From Fimicolochytrium jonesii (taxonomy: Eukaryota): DNA of 64,000 bases. This document shows, one piece after another, positions 1 to 9,914 of this stretch; positions within the stretch are counted from its first letter, which is position 1; the number at the start of each line of letters is the position of its first letter. A program made the translations under genes and the position numbers. The notes under the pieces were generated by a model. It did not search any database, had not been told where the DNA came from, and was given only the letters and a program-made list of their open reading frames with translations. The stretch covers positions 1,612,001-1,676,000 of the forward strand of contig NW_026515669.1 in assembly GCF_025526975.1 (NCBI RefSeq), in the 5' to 3' direction.

Positions 1-20
1 ACGTCCTTTCCATCGTCGGA

Positions 21-3000
21 ATGGACGCCGAGTGCTTACTAGGTCGTCCATTTCTGGAGATGGTAATGGGCATCACCCATTGGAAGAATTCCATTTACCA
101 TTTCAAGATTCACGGCTCCTGGATCCTCGTCCAAGGTAGCACTGGAGAGACGCGCGAAGTCCGTACCCTCACGGCGGCCGAGGAACGTGAATGGGATCAG
201 CACGGTCGTACACCCCTTCTCGATATCACTCCTCCGGCGCCACGCACCCGTTCCCAAACCAGGCAAGCCAACATCTCCTCATTGATCGCTGACGGCTTCA
301 AGGTGGAGATCGATCACACGGGCGATCAGACGCTCGCTGACATTCGTAGTGGCGCTCTCTTCGGCATACTACAAACTGAGCCCTGTCCACCCCTACCCGG
401 CGACTACTATTCCCCGGATTCCGATCAGATGGATTTCCGCATCAACCTGCTACGCACCTTCGCGAATGCCCCGGTCCCCAACCAGATCACCGTCCCGGCT
501 TTCCGACAACTTAAACAGGCTTTGCAACTCGAGCCCAAACTGCCCGAATTCACTCTCCCCGCGACACATGAGTTCCGCTTCCTCACGTGGAATGTTAATT
601 CTTTGCGCAACCTCGTCCGCAAGGGGGTCGACCTGGGCTCCCTCTTCAACCGCCTGAACCTCGATATCGTTTGTTTCCAAGAAATCAAGTGTTCGCGTTC
701 TTCATTACCGCTGTCGCTCACGGACATTCCGGGTTACCGCTCCTTTTGGTCGCTCAGTGAGACCAAACAAGGTGTCAAAGGCGTTGGGACGTACGTCCGC
801 GCTGAGTTAGCCGCTACGCTACGCAAGGTCACAACCGACGCTGATCTACCGATCGACCCGGACGCCGATTGTGAGGGCCGTGTTCTCGCCCTCGACTTCG
901 ACCAATGCACCGTGATCAACGTCTATTATCCGAACGGCGGGATGGGCGACGCTGATCAACAGGCTCATGCGATTACTTCCAAGATCGCCCTCCATCAGAC
1001 TCTGCTTCAGATCGCCACCGCGGCCCGGACGAGCGGACGACACGTCATATTCGCCGGCGATTTCAACGTTGCGCATACCGATTCGGATGTTCACCCCAAC
1101 CTGAAACACCAGATGCACACCGGTGTGACCCCAGCGGAGCGACAACTGCTCACGCATTTGACCGATCACAATTTCGTCGACACTTACACTACCTGCCACC
1201 CTGACGCGCCGGCCGGTGATGGCTACACCACATGGTGGTTCTCCAAGCACGCGCGCGAACGGAACATTGGGCTTCGACTCGATTATGTCTTCCTCGGTCT
1301 GCCGGATGCGGATTATACTCCTCGTATCACTTGCAATGTCCTGCACGAACTCCACGGCTCCGATCACGTTCCGCTGTTATTCACCCTACGCACCATAGTC
1401 AAAGAAACGATCCCCGAGTATCACGCCAAGATGTCGTCGTTAGTCAACGCTTCCCCGGAGTACGTTTCGCCCCTAGCCCCCCGCGACTCACCTACGCTCG
1501 TCCGCCAAGTCGCCGGCATCACTATCGAGTCGATCACTGCGCGATCCATACGCCCGACACCCATGCGCCCACTCAAGGTCGGCACCCGCACCTTCCAGGT
1601 TGCCGAAGATTTACCACCCGCGGTCGTTACCGAGTTAGAACAACTTCTTCACGAATACCACGACGAGTTCTGCAATAAAGACGAAGTGCCCCGCACCTTC
1701 AAGAACGTGCCTGAAATGAATCCGGTCTTGAAGCCCGACCATACCGGTCAACGCAAACTCCCTTTCCCGAAAACGCGCGCGCACAGCCCCAAGGATACCA
1801 AGGTGTTAAACGAATGGTGCGACCGGATGCTCCGGTGGGACAAGATCGAGCCGGTTACCGATCCCCCAGTGGTCGCTGCGCTGCCCATCGTCGTCTACAA
1901 GAATGGTGTAGCGCGGGTATGTGCGCACTTCAAGGTCAACAGCGAGATCCAAGCTTTCCGGTACCCCATCATTCCCGCTCACCTTACCTTGCAACGTGTC
2001 GCCGCGGCCGACCGCATCACGGCCTTCGACTTCCGCCTCGGCTATCATCAGTCCCCACTCCATGTCGCCGCTCGTTACCTCACCACCATCTTACTTCCGC
2101 GCGGGATTTATCAGTACAAAGTCGGACCCATGGGCTTCATCGACACGGGCGAATGGTTCTCCTTCCAAATCGACACCATGATCGGCGAAGTCAAGTTACT
2201 CAAGGACCACACCCACCTCTTTCGCGACGACGCTTACCTGTGCGAAGACAATTTAACAGACCACTCCAGACCCACACACATTGACCGCCTCCGCGCATTC
2301 TTGGAAACCGCCCGCACTCACAACGCTTCAATCTCCGAGCACAAATGTCTCTTCGCCGCTGGCCGGGTCCCCGCGCTGGGCAAACTCGTCGGCAATCGAC
2401 AAATCGCGACCACCGCCAGTAAACTTGACGTCGTCGCCCAGTGGCCTACCCCACGCCATCAAGAAGACCTCCGTTCCTTCCGCGGTTTCATCGGCTTCAT
2501 CTCGGACGGGCTTCCTGACTACGGTCTCTTGATGGCACCTTTGAATACGCTCCTCCGCAAAGAATTCGCCGATAAACGCAAGTTCCGCGCCGAATGGCTC
2601 CGCTCCCAAGAGTACTGTCGTGCCTTTTTAGATGTCAAGCAGCTCGCATCCGACAGCTTCGTTCTTCACGCATACGACCCTAATCGGCCGTTGATCATCG
2701 CCGCCGACGGGTCCGGTACCGGCGCCGGGGTTGTGGTCGCTCATTGTCTCGATCCCGCCGATGACTACCGGGTTACGGCCGACACTCGCTACGTTCCATG
2801 TGAATTCTTCTCCCGCACATGGACCGGAGCCGAGCTTCACTACGAACAACCCGAACGAGAATTGGCTGCCATCATTTTCGGGTTGCTGAAAGCGGAAGTC
2901 CACCTCACCTTCGAATTCTACATTATCACGGATCATCAAGCTTGGGTCAAGTGTCAGAACGCGCATACCAAGAATCGACGCATCCTCAAATGGTTCAACT

Positions 3001-4751
3001 ACATCAACGCACTCCCTACCGCTGACGGTTGGCCGAAATATATCTTCCGCCGCACGGCCGCCCACATCGACGCCGACGCTCTCTCCCGTCGACCCGCAGC
3101 CCCGAGCGAACTTCTCACTTCCACGATCGACGATGAGCTGGATCTGACGCATCCGTGCCCGCTGAACGACATTCACATCAGCGCCAACATCAACCTCCTC
3201 ACGCTCGGTTGGGAACCGTACGACTCCATTCACGCTTACCTCCGGGGAGATCACGCATTCCTTGGTACCGACCCGGCACACGCTACGCGCCTCCGCTCAT
3301 TGGCTCACCGCTTCTTCATCTACGACGGTCGCCTCTATCGCCGCAGCCTTCCTCGCATGCCACCCCGACTGGTCCCCCGTTTAGAGGATGTCGCAGCCAT
3401 CAAGCGTACCTTCCATGGCGACCATCCGGGCTCCTTCGGCCATCTCGGCGTCTTGACAGCGTATCAGATGATTGCCTTACGCTACTTCTGGTTCAACTTG
3501 TACAGCGACATTGAAGAGTGGGTGCGCGCCTGTCCAGTATGTCAGCTCCGTCAATTACGCCGCCCCAAGCAATACCAGCTGTTTCGCATCATTCCCCCGG
3601 CGCTCCTCTTCACGTTGTTAGGTCTCGACTGCGTCACCTACCCGAACGCCCAGATCGGTCGGTCTTCCCAAGTCTACGTCGGCTGCGTCTGCGTCATTGA
3701 TTACCCGTCCGGCTACGGTTGGGCCTACCCGCTCAAGGCGTTCGACGGCCTCAACATCGTTCTCGCGCTCCGCGATTGGTGCGCTCGGTATGGTGTCCCA
3801 GTTCACATCGTGGTTGACAACGCGCAGTATTTTATTGAAGGCGCATTCGCGGCATGGGCGTCCAGGAAATCGATCGAGCTCGTTCAAACGTCGACAATGC
3901 ACCCCATGGGGAATGGTCGGGCTGAGAAGTTTGTCCAGGACATCACTCGTGTTCTGTCTCACATCGTATTGCAACGGAACTTAGAAGCCAAGGTCGACCC
4001 CCCGGACCTGACGATTTGGCCCGACTGCCTCGATTCGGCGATGTACACTTACCTGAATCACGTCGCCCGGACCACAGCCGTTTCCCCCTACAACGTTGTA
4101 TTCGGCCAGCATTGCCACGTTCCCGGACATGCGACCTCCGGCCTGCTCGACCCGGAAGCGCTCGACACCTTGCTCACTGACGAATACCGCGCCGACCGCG
4201 ACGTCCTCCGCGCATGGGCTCTTCAGACCGCTAACCGCAACCGCATCCACGAAACCGAGGCCATCAACGCTACCCGCAAACCCCCGAGAACATATGCGGT
4301 CGGTGATTGGGTGTACGTTCATCGCAACGAGCTGGACACGACCTACGTCTCGACCCGCAAGCTCGTCAACCGTTGGACCGGTCCATATCAGATTTCCAAG
4401 GCTTACCCCGGTGGCGCCTATCTGCTCCTAGATGAACACGGGACCCCTGCTTTCAACTCGCGCCCTGTCAACCATCTCCGCTTAGTTCCCGCTCGAGTAC
4501 GCCCTGCGTGGTCCGGCCCCGCGTTTACCGCCGACCTCCCACTCCCGCTCCATGACGACCAATTGGATCCCCCTCCCAACGCTACGACTAAAGAGATCAA
4601 CAATGACTCTCTCTCCGTCCCTGAACCCATCCCGGACGACCTCCAAGTTTCCCTCGCCGTCCTTTCCGCGGCGCTTCCCTCAGACGACATCTCCTCAAAT
4701 CCTTGCGAACGCCCCGTCGATCCCGCCCATCCTGTTCGCCGCAGGTGTTGA
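21..4751 (+). CDS. pol: Ty3/gypsy pol polyprotein (5'-partial): protease C-term, ExoIII/APE endonuclease, RT, RNase H, zinc finger, integrase
   Basis: Single 1576-aa ORF, open to the window start. LLGRPFL protease tail; APE motifs TWNVN, CFQEIK, NVYYPN, GDFN, RLDY, SDH (about 570-1390); RT FDFRLGYHQ, PMG, FRDD; RNase H AADGSGTG, ERELAAI, TDH; H..H..CPVC; integrase GLD, VDNA, GRAEK. Confidence 0.92.
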   Translation: MDAECLLGRPFLEMVMGITHWKNSIYHFKIHGSWILVQGSTGETREVRTLTAAEEREWDQHGRTPLLDITPPAPRTRSQTRQANISSLIADGFKVEIDHTGDQTLADIRSGALFGILQTEPCPPLPGDYYSPDSDQMDFRINLLRTFANAPVPNQITVPAFRQLKQALQLEPKLPEFTLPATHEFRFLTWNVNSLRNLVRKGVDLGSLFNRLNLDIVCFQEIKCSRSSLPLSLTDIPGYRSFWSLSETKQGVKGVGTYVRAELAATLRKVTTDADLPIDPDADCEGRVLALDFDQCTVINVYYPNGGMGDADQQAHAITSKIALHQTLLQIATAARTSGRHVIFAGDFNVAHTDSDVHPNLKHQMHTGVTPAERQLLTHLTDHNFVDTYTTCHPDAPAGDGYTTWWFSKHARERNIGLRLDYVFLGLPDADYTPRITCNVLHELHGSDHVPLLFTLRTIVKETIPEYHAKMSSLVNASPEYVSPLAPRDSPTLVRQVAGITIESITARSIRPTPMRPLKVGTRTFQVAEDLPPAVVTELEQLLHEYHDEFCNKDEVPRTFKNVPEMNPVLKPDHTGQRKLPFPKTRAHSPKDTKVLNEWCDRMLRWDKIEPVTDPPVVAALPIVVYKNGVARVCAHFKVNSEIQAFRYPIIPAHLTLQRVAAADRITAFDFRLGYHQSPLHVAARYLTTILLPRGIYQYKVGPMGFIDTGEWFSFQIDTMIGEVKLLKDHTHLFRDDAYLCEDNLTDHSRPTHIDRLRAFLETARTHNASISEHKCLFAAGRVPALGKLVGNRQIATTASKLDVVAQWPTPRHQEDLRSFRGFIGFISDGLPDYGLLMAPLNTLLRKEFADKRKFRAEWLRSQEYCRAFLDVKQLASDSFVLHAYDPNRPLIIAADGSGTGAGVVVAHCLDPADDYRVTADTRYVPCEFFSRTWTGAELHYEQPERELAAIIFGLLKAEVHLTFEFYIITDHQAWVKCQNAHTKNRRILKWFNYINALPTADGWPKYIFRRTAAHIDADALSRRPAAPSELLTSTIDDELDLTHPCPLNDIHISANINLLTLGWEPYDSIHAYLRGDHAFLGTDPAHATRLRSLAHRFFIYDGRLYRRSLPRMPPRLVPRLEDVAAIKRTFHGDHPGSFGHLGVLTAYQMIALRYFWFNLYSDIEEWVRACPVCQLRQLRRPKQYQLFRIIPPALLFTLLGLDCVTYPNAQIGRSSQVYVGCVCVIDYPSGYGWAYPLKAFDGLNIVLALRDWCARYGVPVHIVVDNAQYFIEGAFAAWASRKSIELVQTSTMHPMGNGRAEKFVQDITRVLSHIVLQRNLEAKVDPPDLTIWPDCLDSAMYTYLNHVARTTAVSPYNVVFGQHCHVPGHATSGLLDPEALDTLLTDEYRADRDVLRAWALQTANRNRIHETEAINATRKPPRTYAVGDWVYVHRNELDTTYVSTRKLVNRWTGPYQISKAYPGGAYLLLDEHGTPAFNSRPVNHLRLVPARVRPAWSGPAFTADLPLPLHDDQLDPPPNATTKEINNDSLSVPEPIPDDLQVSLAVLSAALPSDDISSNPCERPVDPAHPVRRRC

Positions 4752-5017
4752 CTCTTCCTCTTTCGACTTCCCGCCTTTCTCCCGTTCCGCTTTTTTCTCG
4801 TTTCGGTTTTTTCGCTTTCGCTTCATCAACTCGAACGATCGCTCGCCTCCGTCACCACGCGCCCGCTAATGCCCCCGGGACGGTCCGTCTATACCGCGTC
4901 AGTGCCTCTGCGTCGATTAACGTCCTTTTCTTCTTCTTTTCGGTTTCGGATCACTTGTGTTGCGTCTTGTTTCGGTTTCTCGTGACTCGCTTGGCACTGT
5001 GGAGGCAGGGGGAGGAA

Positions 5018-5694
5018 TGTGGTGCGGTGAGGAAACAGGTCATATTGCCGCAACCCTAACTCCCTGCGGTAACCCTACCCCACTAGCTAGTTTATATCCC
5101 CAGTCACATGACTTGTTGTCGTATTTTTCTACTTGTACATATCCGCGCGCGACTGCGCCGGCTTTCTCTTTTCTTCTTTACCCATAATACATCTATATAT
5201 CCCTGCCTACCTCAACGCGTCCATACCATGCGCTTACCTCATGACAGCATCCCAACAGTCAGTCAATGTCAATTCCCTGTCAAAACCTGACATCTGCCAA
5301 ACCTCGCAGCCGCACGCAGCCGCGCTACCCCACACACCCACTGCCTTCATTTCTCCACGCAGCCGCACGTAGCCCCACCTCCCAACACTCGGCGCTTACA
5401 AACCCTTCTTCATACTTCCCCACGTACCCGCCCACAGCCTCAGCGTAGCCACCCCATCCCCAGTCTTCTGTTTCTATGCTTCCCCCACCCTTGGCGCTTC
5501 TCTTGGCTTCCCTCTCATTCCGCACCCTTCTGCTTCCCCACGCTTCCCCAGCCTTCCCAGAAAAGCATAAATAGCCGCCTCCCCTGAGCTCCCCACTTCC
5601 TGATCCCCCAGCAGATCAACACCAGTTCTTCCTAGTCTTGTTCTAGTTCTTGTTTCGGTCTGAATACCATTACCTGTCAACAACCTGCACCACA
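5018..5694 (+). repeat. 3' LTR of the APE-bearing gypsy element
   Basis: Purine tract GGAGGCAGGGGGAGGAA directly before TGTGGTGC; ends GCACCACA (8-bp inverted termini); internal ATAAATA box. Confidence 0.8.
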
Positions 5695-7024: not shown

Positions 7025-7342
7025 GCAACTCATGCAGAGCACACTCTGAGCATGGAAGCGTCAAGCGCTCGCAGCGGACGACAGCCCCCTGGCCAACGCC
7101 CACCTCCTTCCAGCTCAAGCCCGGCAACTCACGCAGAGCACGCTCTGAGCATGCTCAGCGCCGACGAGGTGAGTGGCTGCTGTGCAGCCGTGGGCGGACC
7201 GCCTGGGCTCGCGGTCCATGTTGAGCACGACCGCCGCTTGCGGGAGGTCGACCTGCATGGGCTGTGCTGTCTGGGCGTGTTTGTCTGGGCGTGTTTGCTA
7301 TACGCTGACCTTGCGGTCCATGTTGAGCACGACCGCCGCTTG
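7025..7342. repeat. Two pairs of 30-bp direct repeats
   Basis: GCAACTCAYGCAGAGCACRCTCTGAGCATG at 7025 and 7124; GCGGTCCATGTTGAGCACGACCGCCGCTTG at 7211 and 7313. Confidence 0.75.
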
Positions 7343-7350
7343 AGGTCGCC

Positions 7351-8868
7351 TTGCCTGGGATGCGCTGCCGTGCCGCGGCAGTGGTCGCGATCGGGCTAGG
7401 TCTGCTAACACCTTCCCTCCCCCCCTTCCCCTCTACCGCGCCACAGGCCACGCCCCCCGTCGCACCCACCGCGGTCGAGGCTCTTCTGATGGGCATGGGC
7501 GAGAGCCGCGCCACAGGTATCTTCGGCGACACGGTGGCCTTTTTGTATCCCCTGCTGGTAGACGCCGGCCTTGCCGCCGGGGACGCCAGCCTAGAAGACA
7601 AGGCCAAGGCGATTGGCCTTTTTTCAAAGAAGATCAAGCAAGACAACCCCACCCTTTGGGGTTGGTGGATCAATAGGCCAACGCGGTCCCGTCACCAGAA
7701 GAAGCGCGCCAAGCACCACATTGGGCTCCAGTCCGGCATCATCGCCGCGATCAGCGATGGCAGTCTTACCACGGCCGACTTCTTGGTGGACCCCCAGCCC
7801 TCCGCTAGCCGCCCGGCTGTTCACATCGTGGTGCCAATGCCCGCCTCGTGCGATGGCTGGGAGGGCAAGATGGTCTTTGCGGGGTTTGGGGAGAGGCCGG
7901 CGAAGGCGAGGGGCCTGGATGAGCTTGAGCAAATTGAACCACGGGCGGGGGCCGACATCTACATCCGCGACGAGCACGGCGCCCTTGTGGCCACAATCTC
8001 GTACAATACCGCGGGGCGTCGCAAACACGACCTGCGGCTGGGGCTCATGATCGAGTCCTGTGGATCCCGGCCGGCTGTGGTTCGATGGAAGGCCTCAAGG
8101 GGCACAATGCATACCCCGGGGCTTTGTCGTGGCAACAAGAACTCGGGATATGCCAGGGGGACATCGCACTATTCAATGAAAGGAGGGGCAGACATGTCCG
8201 CAAAGAAGTTTCTCGTCGCCACGGAAAAGGCCTTCACCAAGCGACTGCTGCTGGAGCTCGCCAAACGCAACCCCACCGCGGTGGCCTACCTGATGATGGC
8301 CATGCCAGAGGTGTACGGGCCAAATTCCGATGAGTTCCCCCCGCTGTTCGCCTCCACCAACCATCAAGTGGTCGTTCACTCCGACCCGTCGGACGACGGC
8401 GTAGCCGGTGAGCTGAACCCACACACAGGCCGCGCCATATGGAAGCTGACCCCCAAGGAGGAGCTTCCGGAGGAGCTTCAGGCCCCCAAGCTCTGCACGC
8501 AATGGGTGGCAGGCTACGCCGCCGCTCCGCCAACCGTCGTCGGCGAGTGGATATTTGCGCTGCCAGAGCAAGGCCTCTACTTGGTGCTGCAGCCCGACTG
8601 CATGTGGACGTGGATGTCTGACAAGCTCCACAGAACGGCGGTGCTTGACACGTCCGGCGCCAGTCGCCACACGGCTGTTGTGACGCTGCCCCTGGCGACG
8701 GCCGCGGCCATCCGGAAATACGGCCTCCCTGATGAAGATGAGGACAATCCGTACCCACACCACCACCACAAAACGACCGCGAACCCTGCACCAACATCGT
8801 CGTGCGCCTCGAACAGGGCAAAACAATACGGCTCCTCAACTTCCACGCAAAGCAAAGTGGTTGAATGA
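7351..8868 (+). CDS. Putative 2OG-Fe(II) dioxygenase, divergent TET/JBP-like (start uncertain, possibly ATG near 7489)
   Basis: NHQVVVHSD (HxD) ... GEWIFALPEQGLYLVL ... WMSDKLHRT (distal H) ... RHTAVVT; a double-stranded beta-helix pattern. Confidence 0.5.
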   Translation: MPGMRCRAAAVVAIGLGLLTPSLPPFPSTAPQATPPVAPTAVEALLMGMGESRATGIFGDTVAFLYPLLVDAGLAAGDASLEDKAKAIGLFSKKIKQDNPTLWGWWINRPTRSRHQKKRAKHHIGLQSGIIAAISDGSLTTADFLVDPQPSASRPAVHIVVPMPASCDGWEGKMVFAGFGERPAKARGLDELEQIEPRAGADIYIRDEHGALVATISYNTAGRRKHDLRLGLMIESCGSRPAVVRWKASRGTMHTPGLCRGNKNSGYARGTSHYSMKGGADMSAKKFLVATEKAFTKRLLLELAKRNPTAVAYLMMAMPEVYGPNSDEFPPLFASTNHQVVVHSDPSDDGVAGELNPHTGRAIWKLTPKEELPEELQAPKLCTQWVAGYAAAPPTVVGEWIFALPEQGLYLVLQPDCMWTWMSDKLHRTAVLDTSGASRHTAVVTLPLATAAAIRKYGLPDEDEDNPYPHHHHKTTANPAPTSSCASNRAKQYGSSTSTQSKVVE

Positions 8869-9914
8869 AACTATTAGCATATCCGAAGATCAGGTTCGTC
8901 CCTCCCCGTCTCCTCCCCATCCCCCTTCTTCCACTCACCCCTATCTATTTTCCAGGGGCAATAGCTCTTTGCCCTCCTCCCCCGCCGGGTCGCCATCTCG
9001 CGCTCTCGGGGTCACCACACCAACAACAAGCGCCGTTCGGGCCGGCGTGCCCATCGGCGTCAAAGCCGCCAGCTGCTCGGGGAATGTGCTTTGGCATCTT
9101 CGTGTGTATCGATGCTACAAAACGTCAAGGATGCGACAGGACCCGTTTTGAGGAGATTGCGCTCCACCTTGACCACCAGCGTCAGTTAGCTTACCCCGTG
9201 ACGATAAACGGTGCACAGACGTCTGGTACCATGATCGGTGTTGGCTGGCGTGCAGGTACAGATCGTGGAAAAAGCATGGGGATCTACCAACCGCGAAAAA
9301 AGGATTCCGTCAGCAAGGAGAAGTGGGTCGCGTTACAAGCTGAGTTACCGAAGATCGAGGCACATTACGTATACTTTCTCAATAAGCTTTCGCCTTACCT
9401 CTTGTCTCGCATCAAAAAGCGGGCAAAGGAACTACGCGTGCCAAGCTTTTCACAAGCGGAATTCGGCAACCTCGTTGCAGACGACTCTCTCGCCAGCAAT
9501 ATCACCGCCACATGGGATGATTTTGCCAATAAATTCCACCGCGATAACCACACATCAAAATTCACATACGGAATCTGGCTCCCAGTATCGGACAAGACAG
9601 GCAAGCTGAAGAGCAAGGCGGATGGATTCGCCTGTCATGGTGGAGTCTTTGTGAATGCGGACTACCGTGTGTATGTGGATTTTGATGCGTGCGACGGCGT
9701 AGTCGAGATCGTTTGGCGAGGGCCTGAGGATGCACACGCAACCACATCATCCGTCAGAGGCCAAGACTCGAATCGCCTTGGGACCTCCGTTCAAATCAAT
9801 GAGAAGCTGGCAAAACGAGTCAAGCGGTTGTTGCAGCTACGGGAGGAGGAGGGTATCAATGCCGCGGCGGGACGCATCCGTGGGGTTGCGGAGACTTTAG
9901 AGCGATCGGGCTGA
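8865..9914 (+). CDS. Fungal TET/JBP-type 2OG-Fe(II) oxygenase (5' end probably spliced)
   Basis: GTMIGVGWR, SNITATWDDFANKFHRD (HxD), YGIW, GGVF..DYRVYVDFDACDGVVEIVW, HATT, RLGTSVQI. Confidence 0.8.
   Translation: MKLLAYPKIRFVPPRLLPIPLLPLTPIYFPGAIALCPPPPPGRHLALSGSPHQQQAPFGPACPSASKPPAARGMCFGIFVCIDATKRQGCDRTRFEEIALHLDHQRQLAYPVTINGAQTSGTMIGVGWRAGTDRGKSMGIYQPRKKDSVSKEKWVALQAELPKIEAHYVYFLNKLSPYLLSRIKKRAKELRVPSFSQAEFGNLVADDSLASNITATWDDFANKFHRDNHTSKFTYGIWLPVSDKTGKLKSKADGFACHGGVFVNADYRVYVDFDACDGVVEIVWRGPEDAHATTSSVRGQDSNRLGTSVQINEKLAKRVKRLLQLREEEGINAAAGRIRGVAETLERSG

Follow-up and report, generated by a model that had tools for sequence, protein, structure and literature searches.

A cellular-type Xth nuclease domain between protease and reverse transcriptase in a family of Ty3/gypsy-type retroelements

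The window, the whole 64,000-nucleotide stretch of Fimicolochytrium jonesii DNA that was analyzed (contig NW_026515669.1, positions 1,612,001 to 1,676,000), opens within the pol reading frame of an LTR-type retroelement that carries an Xth/ExoIII-family nuclease domain. The element comprises the following parts, given in window coordinates.

3..4751, forward strand: pol reading frame (end of protease, APE domain, reverse transcriptase, RNase H, integrase), 1582 aa, stop-free, its 5' end left open by the window edge
3..135, forward strand: aspartic protease, C-terminal end only, with an LLGRPF motif at 36 (aa 12); the active site is encoded farther upstream, outside the window
570..1391, forward strand: Xth/ExoIII-family nuclease domain, pol aa 190-463
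1773..2492 (limits approximate), forward strand: reverse transcriptase (Pfam RVT_1), FRDD catalytic motif at 2220
2616..3090, forward strand: RNase H, acidic catalytic residues present
3411..4500, forward strand: integrase with an HHCC finger, D-D-E core motifs at 3624, 3813 and 3915, and a GPY motif at 4380
5001..5017, forward strand: polypurine tract, with a GAGGA/TGTGG-type junction also seen in relatives
5018..5694, forward strand: inferred 3' LTR, 677 bp, 8-bp inverted termini; a second copy is absent from the window

Along the window pol, Pfam places Exo_endo_phos at residues 194-455, RVT_1 at 659-789, RNase H at 872-1001, and the integrase zinc finger at 1137-1184. This order and the positions of the motifs EGRV (window 873), NVYYPNG (918), GDFNVAH (1056), YTTWW (1224), RLDY (1275), and GSDH (1356) agree with an earlier, sequence-only reading of the locus, which had placed a set of APE motifs in frame between protease and reverse transcriptase. 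The same reading had described an intact pol of 1576 residues; the frame is stop-free as claimed, but its 5' end is open, the count of 1576 starts at an internal methionine, and the protease is partial. Over 424 shared residues, P0122, a protein from an NCBI assembly, shows 2 differences from the window pol, and it has 337 extra N-terminal residues, among them the protease active site (residues 266-356 match Pfam gag-asp_proteas under the curated cutoff). Because this near-identical protein extends further N-terminally, the full-length pol of the window element would comprise ~1,920 residues. The earlier description of a pol that ends in a polypurine tract and LTR stands for the purine tract and the 677-bp LTR with its 8-bp inverted ends, but not for the intactness of the element as a whole: neither gag nor the 5' LTR nor the target-site duplication falls within the window, and the window copy is therefore not demonstrably an intact element. 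The LTR is putatively identified from its ends and from relatives, whose LTRs measure about 560-715 bp, rather than from a second copy; its terminal 8-mer occurs a single time in the 2 kb downstream.

The element has the hallmarks of Ty3/gypsy (Metaviridae) retrotransposons: the pol order is PR-RT-RH-IN, and the polypurine tract is followed by an LTR with TG...CA ends. The best PDB matches of its RT-RH region are Ty3 RT/Gag-Pol (E 1e-26). Pfam finds no chromodomain in the integrase, and no tRNA genes were found in the window. The codon make-up of the nuclease domain equals that of the rest of pol (GC3 0.67 versus 0.62-0.73). Two LTR segments (5215-5283 and 5567-5656) are 73-76% identical to the LTR of an unrelated gypsy family that lies at 15.7-29.6 kb and 59.6-60.1 kb of the window, and segments common to two unrelated families suggest LTR exchange.

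APE domains serve to tell non-LTR from LTR elements; the domain in this pol is of the cellular type. It scores 178.5 bits against TIGR00633 (xth; cutoff 99), and 11 of 11 aligned family members match the same model at E<=0.001. At E<=0.001 the window domain has 57 PDB matches, every one of them an ExoIII/APE1/APE2/Crc-type protein; with this single domain as the query, LINE endonucleases are missing from the PDB matches even at E<=10. The top matches are Mth212 and Mm3148, with a modest lead for Mth212, and ordinary bacterial Xth proteins score equally well (144 versus 138 bits). A profile built from 11 family members gives 217 bits to Mth212, about 159 to APE1, 154 and 132 to APE2, and 50 to LINE-1. 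The predicted structure, an alignment-based fold, adopts the ExoIII four-layer architecture (pLDDT 87.7) and compares with Mth212, APE1, and ExoA at a TM of about 0.8. The catalytic residues are all kept: N197, E227, Y308, N311, D353, N355, D427, D454, and H455 in pol numbering, matched residue by residue to their presumed APE1 counterparts. With its catalytic set complete, the domain is predicted to be an active nuclease.

The AP-site pocket is where the domain departs from most cellular homologues. In the window element, the pocket is opened by T410, W411, and L424. The first position, presumably equivalent to APE1 F266 and ExoIII W212, aligns with the Mth212 W205S site; it is occupied by T, A, or C in 12/12 family members covering that position and by an aromatic residue in 130 of 131 cellular homologues. 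The residue that follows is W in all 12, and the position of W280 holds L, M, or F in the same 12, where 121 of 131 cellular rows have W. The APE1-type aromatic pocket (F266 plus W280) is absent from every one of these members, and the APE2/Apn2 pattern, in which the second aromatic alone of the pair is retained, is present. APE2/Apn2 enzymes also carry a C-terminal PIP box and GRF zinc finger; the likeness to APE2 is one of pocket type and does not extend to this tail, which is absent from the window domain, the linker to the reverse transcriptase following directly. In APE1, the F266A substitution raises exonuclease rates about 20-50-fold, and APE2 is without this pocket (PMC5785985, in excerpt). 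ExoIII with the second aromatic alone shows stronger exonuclease activity, still cuts AP sites, and thereby mirrors APE2 (PMC8887469, in excerpt). An Asn occupies the D70 position, a state that favors 3'-end cleaning (PMC2665217, in excerpt) but adds little here because it is common in Xth. Taken with these mutants, the opened pocket points to a 3'-5' exonuclease or 3'-end cleaner, and the pocket residues, perhaps also the APE tree (below), lean toward an APE2-like, exonuclease-biased enzyme over an APE1-like AP endonuclease.

An alternative is that the enzyme repairs uracil or abasic sites in the cDNA, nicking at AP sites, or at uracil directly as Mth212 does, with resynthesis by the reverse transcriptase; this would be the equivalent of the job done by dUTPase, which rotifer and basidiomycete elements carry in the same slot of pol, after the protease and ahead of the reverse transcriptase (PMC5408684, PMC6431247, both in excerpt). 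The rank of Mth212 and Mm3148 among the PDB matches favors this alternative, as does the AP incision retained by the single-aromatic form of ExoIII (PMC8887469), because of which the pocket is also compatible with an AP endonuclease. However, the pocket is shifted from the AP-specialist state in all 12 members, the lead of Mth212 over ordinary Xth is slight, and a glycosylase or ligase domain occurs in no pol scanned, so that nicks in the cDNA would depend on the host. We regard uracil or abasic-site repair as unlikely; of the two roles suggested by the sequence-only reading, abasic/uracil processing and 3'-end processing, the latter is the better supported because the pocket leans APE2-like.

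The domain recurs in related elements. In a search with the APE-RT-RH region over 1.84 billion representatives, 13 of the 150 matches listed combine an APE domain and a gypsy reverse transcriptase in one chain, and five of these (P0123-P0126 and P0134) have the domain order of the window pol. Of 136 stretches from a metagenome scan, 11 were confirmed: ten are copies of five distinct elements (P0124 and P0125 included), and one is an ordinary xth gene. Altogether, 13 distinct domain-bearing members, among them P0259, P0281, P0002, and P0212, were drawn from NCBI, ENA, JGI, and Logan; their domains are 22-78% identical, and every full-length member has the nuclease domain in pol. The closest named relatives, P0002 (54%) and P0212 (42%, with similarity that takes in the PR-APE linker), are gene models of two Spizellomycetales chytrids, an illustration of how gene callers file fragments of the domain as host repair genes. 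A gag frame with a CCHC knuckle lies upstream of pol in 5/5 relatives scanned (L031, L032, L035, L036, L038), and gag and pol overlap in the -1 frame at a common GGATTTT in the four checked. Three distinct relatives show the succession of polypurine tract, LTR, and primer site; the primer site, TGGTGGAGAATCGG, presumably corresponds to the 3' end of tRNA-Ala, which it resembles. The relatives' contigs are 10-15 kb long; three of them are self-closing, the pattern that collapsed LTR repeats would give. In two relatives, pol is followed by a third frame, 600-680 aa long and with no Pfam match (L036, 12154-14184; L038, 6006-7859). Scans of viral contigs confirmed 0 of 185 stretches (30 pattern matches, none with a pol match), the ESM Atlas gave no usable match, and a word-index search of the APE region against proteins of 870-2769 aa gave no match, a weak blank given that such proteins exist.

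A Dam-like N6-adenine methyltransferase, a domain familiar from DIRS elements and not known to be typical of gypsy, lies in frame between APE and reverse transcriptase in five distinct relatives that form a subclade (P0124, P0125, L031, L035, L037), and it is also conserved in the relatives that carry it. This neighbor bears on a second alternative, in which the nuclease acts after integration or on host chromatin, either with the preintegration complex at gapped junctions or with the methyltransferase in preparing a new copy for expression. Host repair enzymes are available in the nucleus and not in the particle, which speaks against the need for such a nuclear function, as does the lack of a methyltransferase in the post-APE slot of the window element, P0123, P0126, P0134, and P0281. 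In its favor, APE2-type enzymes resect single-strand breaks (PMC6122073, in excerpt). A post-integration role seems quite unlikely to us.

The inheritance of the domain was followed in two trees. The APE tree holds 79 of 165 APE domains, near-duplicates and most bacterial rows having been left out and eukaryotic APE1 being absent; in it, the 13 family rows form a single clade (96/96). The clade is placed in an open fork with eukaryote-type rows, labeled as such by their tails (three are named); the tree's two fungal Apn2-like rows are not its sister group. The RT-RH tree is a quick, unrooted tree of 55 rows with no non-gypsy outgroup; here too the family is one clade (99), beside six sister elements, and the branching matches that of the APE tree for the eight shared rows. 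Together with the six sisters, the family forms a long-branch clade apart from other gypsy rows, which may be a Ylt1-like lineage or an undescribed one; the Ylt1-like fungal lineage uses a tRNA-Ala primer. Four sister elements pass from protease to reverse transcriptase in 413-444 aa without an APE domain, a distance for which the window pol needs 728 aa. Because the family is one clade, its RT tree matches, and sisters are APE-less, a single gain followed by vertical inheritance appears the simplest reading, although the tree is unrooted and loss in the sisters would also fit. The motif [FY]RDD in the reverse transcriptase is found in 12/12 family rows and 0/43 others; the RDD change and the APE gain fall on one branch as a single event, and the link between them may therefore be chance. 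In three pairs compared, pS is saturated (0.81-0.84), for which reason no dN/dS ratio is given for the APE domain, and its pN of 0.13-0.32 is comparable to that of RNase H and integrase. Judged by these substitution patterns, the nuclease domain is kept under purifying selection.

These results also bear on three further readings of the domain: a target-site nickase of LINE type, a nested fusion that arose by chance, and a misassembly. Animal Kuafuorterviruses do show sporadic Exo_endo_phos matches, mostly beside LINE-type domains (PMC11673190, in excerpt). In the present family, however, the LINE-1 endonuclease reaches only 50 bits against 217 for Mth212 and 159 for APE1, and a grouping of family and LINE is rejected (p-AU 0.024, with a single LINE row in the test); the 13 distinct members come from four separate sources, and the domain, uniform in GC3 with its surroundings, sits among a canonical integrase, polypurine tract, LTR, and primer site. 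Profile scores and AU test rule out a LINE origin, and the recurrence of the PR-APE-RT order in a 13-member family rules out chance fusion; taken together, a nickase, fusion, or artifact is highly improbable. The claim of the sequence-only reading that the domain is Xth/APE1-like rather than LINE-like, and a captured repair-type domain, has thus held up: of the profile search and phylogeny for which it had called, the former places the domain with Xth, APE1, and APE2 and the latter sets it apart from the LINE row, further copies with the PR-APE-RT order occur in divergent elements of independent assemblies, and neither a LINE grouping nor a single-copy fusion, which it had named as outcomes contrary to its claim, was found. 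A captured and conserved domain in a Ty3/gypsy-type pol is, in our judgment, all but certain.

Capture of Xth domains is not confined to this family. Eight unrelated giant gypsy pols (P0185, P0198, P0208, P0225, P0230, P0235, P0194, P0236) carry Xth-like domains, six before the protease and two after RNase H, and their reverse transcriptases are placed elsewhere than the family in the RT tree. One origin of the domains of seven of these pols with that of the family was rejected (p-AU 0.0235); these separately gained rows have long branches and are known from proteins without DNA context. Separate origins imply that gypsy elements took up Xth domains more than once, at least twice in addition to the present family, and their repeated capture, at three positions in pol, suggests that reverse transcription generally requires processing of ends or damage, a task that most elements leave to the host. 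The giant pols contain further cargo: SET (P0225), PhoH (P0208), and an N6/N4 methylase (P0236). In P0285-P0291, apparently prokaryotic proteins, Xth is fused to family A polymerase or to ligase domains.

Several known systems resemble the family in part. The dUTPase-bearing LTR elements (rotifer Juno, Vesta, and TelKA, basidiomycete elements, and planarian Burro) likewise carry a maintenance enzyme in frame between protease and reverse transcriptase throughout a lineage (PMC5408684, PMC6431247); their cargo acts on the nucleotide pool, whereas that of the window family is a nuclease acting on DNA. Rotifer Juno and Vesta also encode a predicted 3'-5' exonuclease, of the DEDDy type, that differs in fold and resides in a separate ORF3 instead of a pol domain; in the excerpts of PMC5408684, these ORF3s show no clear departure from neutrality, in contrast to the purifying selection seen here. 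KnitGypsy-Dnmt3 and the aRNH-bearing Tat/Chronos elements are similar in that a host enzyme was captured into gypsy pol and conserved (PMC5890265, PMC5348765, in excerpt), the cargo being a methyltransferase or an RNase H. The cellular enzymes APE2/Apn2, ExoIII (Xth), Mth212, and APE1 share the fold, the full catalytic set, and the above-cutoff TIGR00633 match, and differ in that the family domain is embedded in a retroelement polyprotein and has a family-specific NS(I/L/V)R motif. The LINE APE endonuclease belongs to the same superfamily and also lies N-terminal to a reverse transcriptase in one chain; its score is far lower, and in the family RNase H and a DDE integrase come after the reverse transcriptase, which is of the gypsy type. 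The closest arrangement is found in Kuafuorterviruses, in which one of 21 occurrences in the supplement has the order protease, Exo_endo_phos, reverse transcriptase, RNase H (PMC11673190); these are animal elements with mostly Exo_endo_phos_2 beside a second reverse transcriptase or other LINE domains, matches that the excerpted text does not analyze and that we read as nested LINE pieces. No LTR lineage with an Xth-type domain is described in the open full-text literature searched, a scope that does not take in Repbase, GyDB, subscription journals, and most supplements, and term look-ups in the text available from PMC3248453, PMC5718144, PMC10799480, PMC13524379, and PMC6317226 found none.

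Based on the analysis above, the nuclease may be packaged with the reverse transcriptase to trim mismatched or blocked 3' ends of cDNA, a proposal to which we give an even chance. Following general retroelement biology, pol would be produced through a -1 frameshift, enter the particle, and be processed by the protease, which would place the nuclease beside the reverse transcriptase and the cDNA. Inside the particle, the enzyme could clear the growing strand of nucleotides that are mismatched, extra, or blocked, after which the reverse transcriptase could resume. By analogy with the APE1 and ExoIII mutants, its 3'-5' exonuclease and 3'-phosphodiesterase activities would be strong, with AP incision retained but secondary, and candidate steps served are mismatch removal, clean-up at strand transfers, or integration-gap repair. 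Fusion of Xth to family A polymerase elsewhere (P0285-P0289) provides a supporting analogue. Several points count against 3'-end trimming: the best structural and profile matches are to Mth212, a uridine endonuclease, and not to APE2; an unrestrained 3'-5' exonuclease could also harm cDNA ends; and larger elements such as Ogre and Burro exist with no such domain reported for them. A more demanding version is true proofreading, in which a captured 3'-5' exonuclease co-adapted with the RDD-type reverse transcriptase would remove misincorporated bases during reverse transcription and so support genomes of 10-15 kb, much as nidovirus ExoN supports large genomes; this we hold only tentatively, as somewhat unlikely.

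ExoIII has an RNase H side activity, and the domain might instead serve as a second RNase H, comparable to the extra aRNH of Tat and oomycete elements. Across the family, the acidic residues of the native RNase H are intact, which argues against this possibility, and we consider it very unlikely, even though gypsy elements have repeatedly gained extra RNase H domains (PMC5348765).

The presence of a cellular-type APE domain, fixed and under selection, in the pol of an LTR element qualifies the use of APE domains as a marker of element class. To our knowledge, reverse transcriptases lack proofreading. The natural pairing of reverse transcriptase and putative exonuclease offers a direct test of cDNA editing by a retroelement and a candidate part for higher-fidelity reverse transcriptase tools; if 3'-end editing proves true, it would amount to a proofreading-like step for a retroelement that is undescribed in the literature searched.

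Further mobile and accessory genes lie downstream in the window. Positions 7327-9914 hold two adjacent frames, the first without a Pfam match and the second a Tet-like 2OG-Fe(II) oxygenase (PF20515). A chromovirus-type gypsy copy is interrupted at 31748-56893 by a Polinton-like insertion of 25 kb, which has long inverted ends (arms of 711 and 221 bp); the genes of the insertion encode a D5 primase-helicase, an A32-like ATPase, an rve-chromodomain integrase, a C5 methylase-like match, and a fiber-like protein of 2336 aa.
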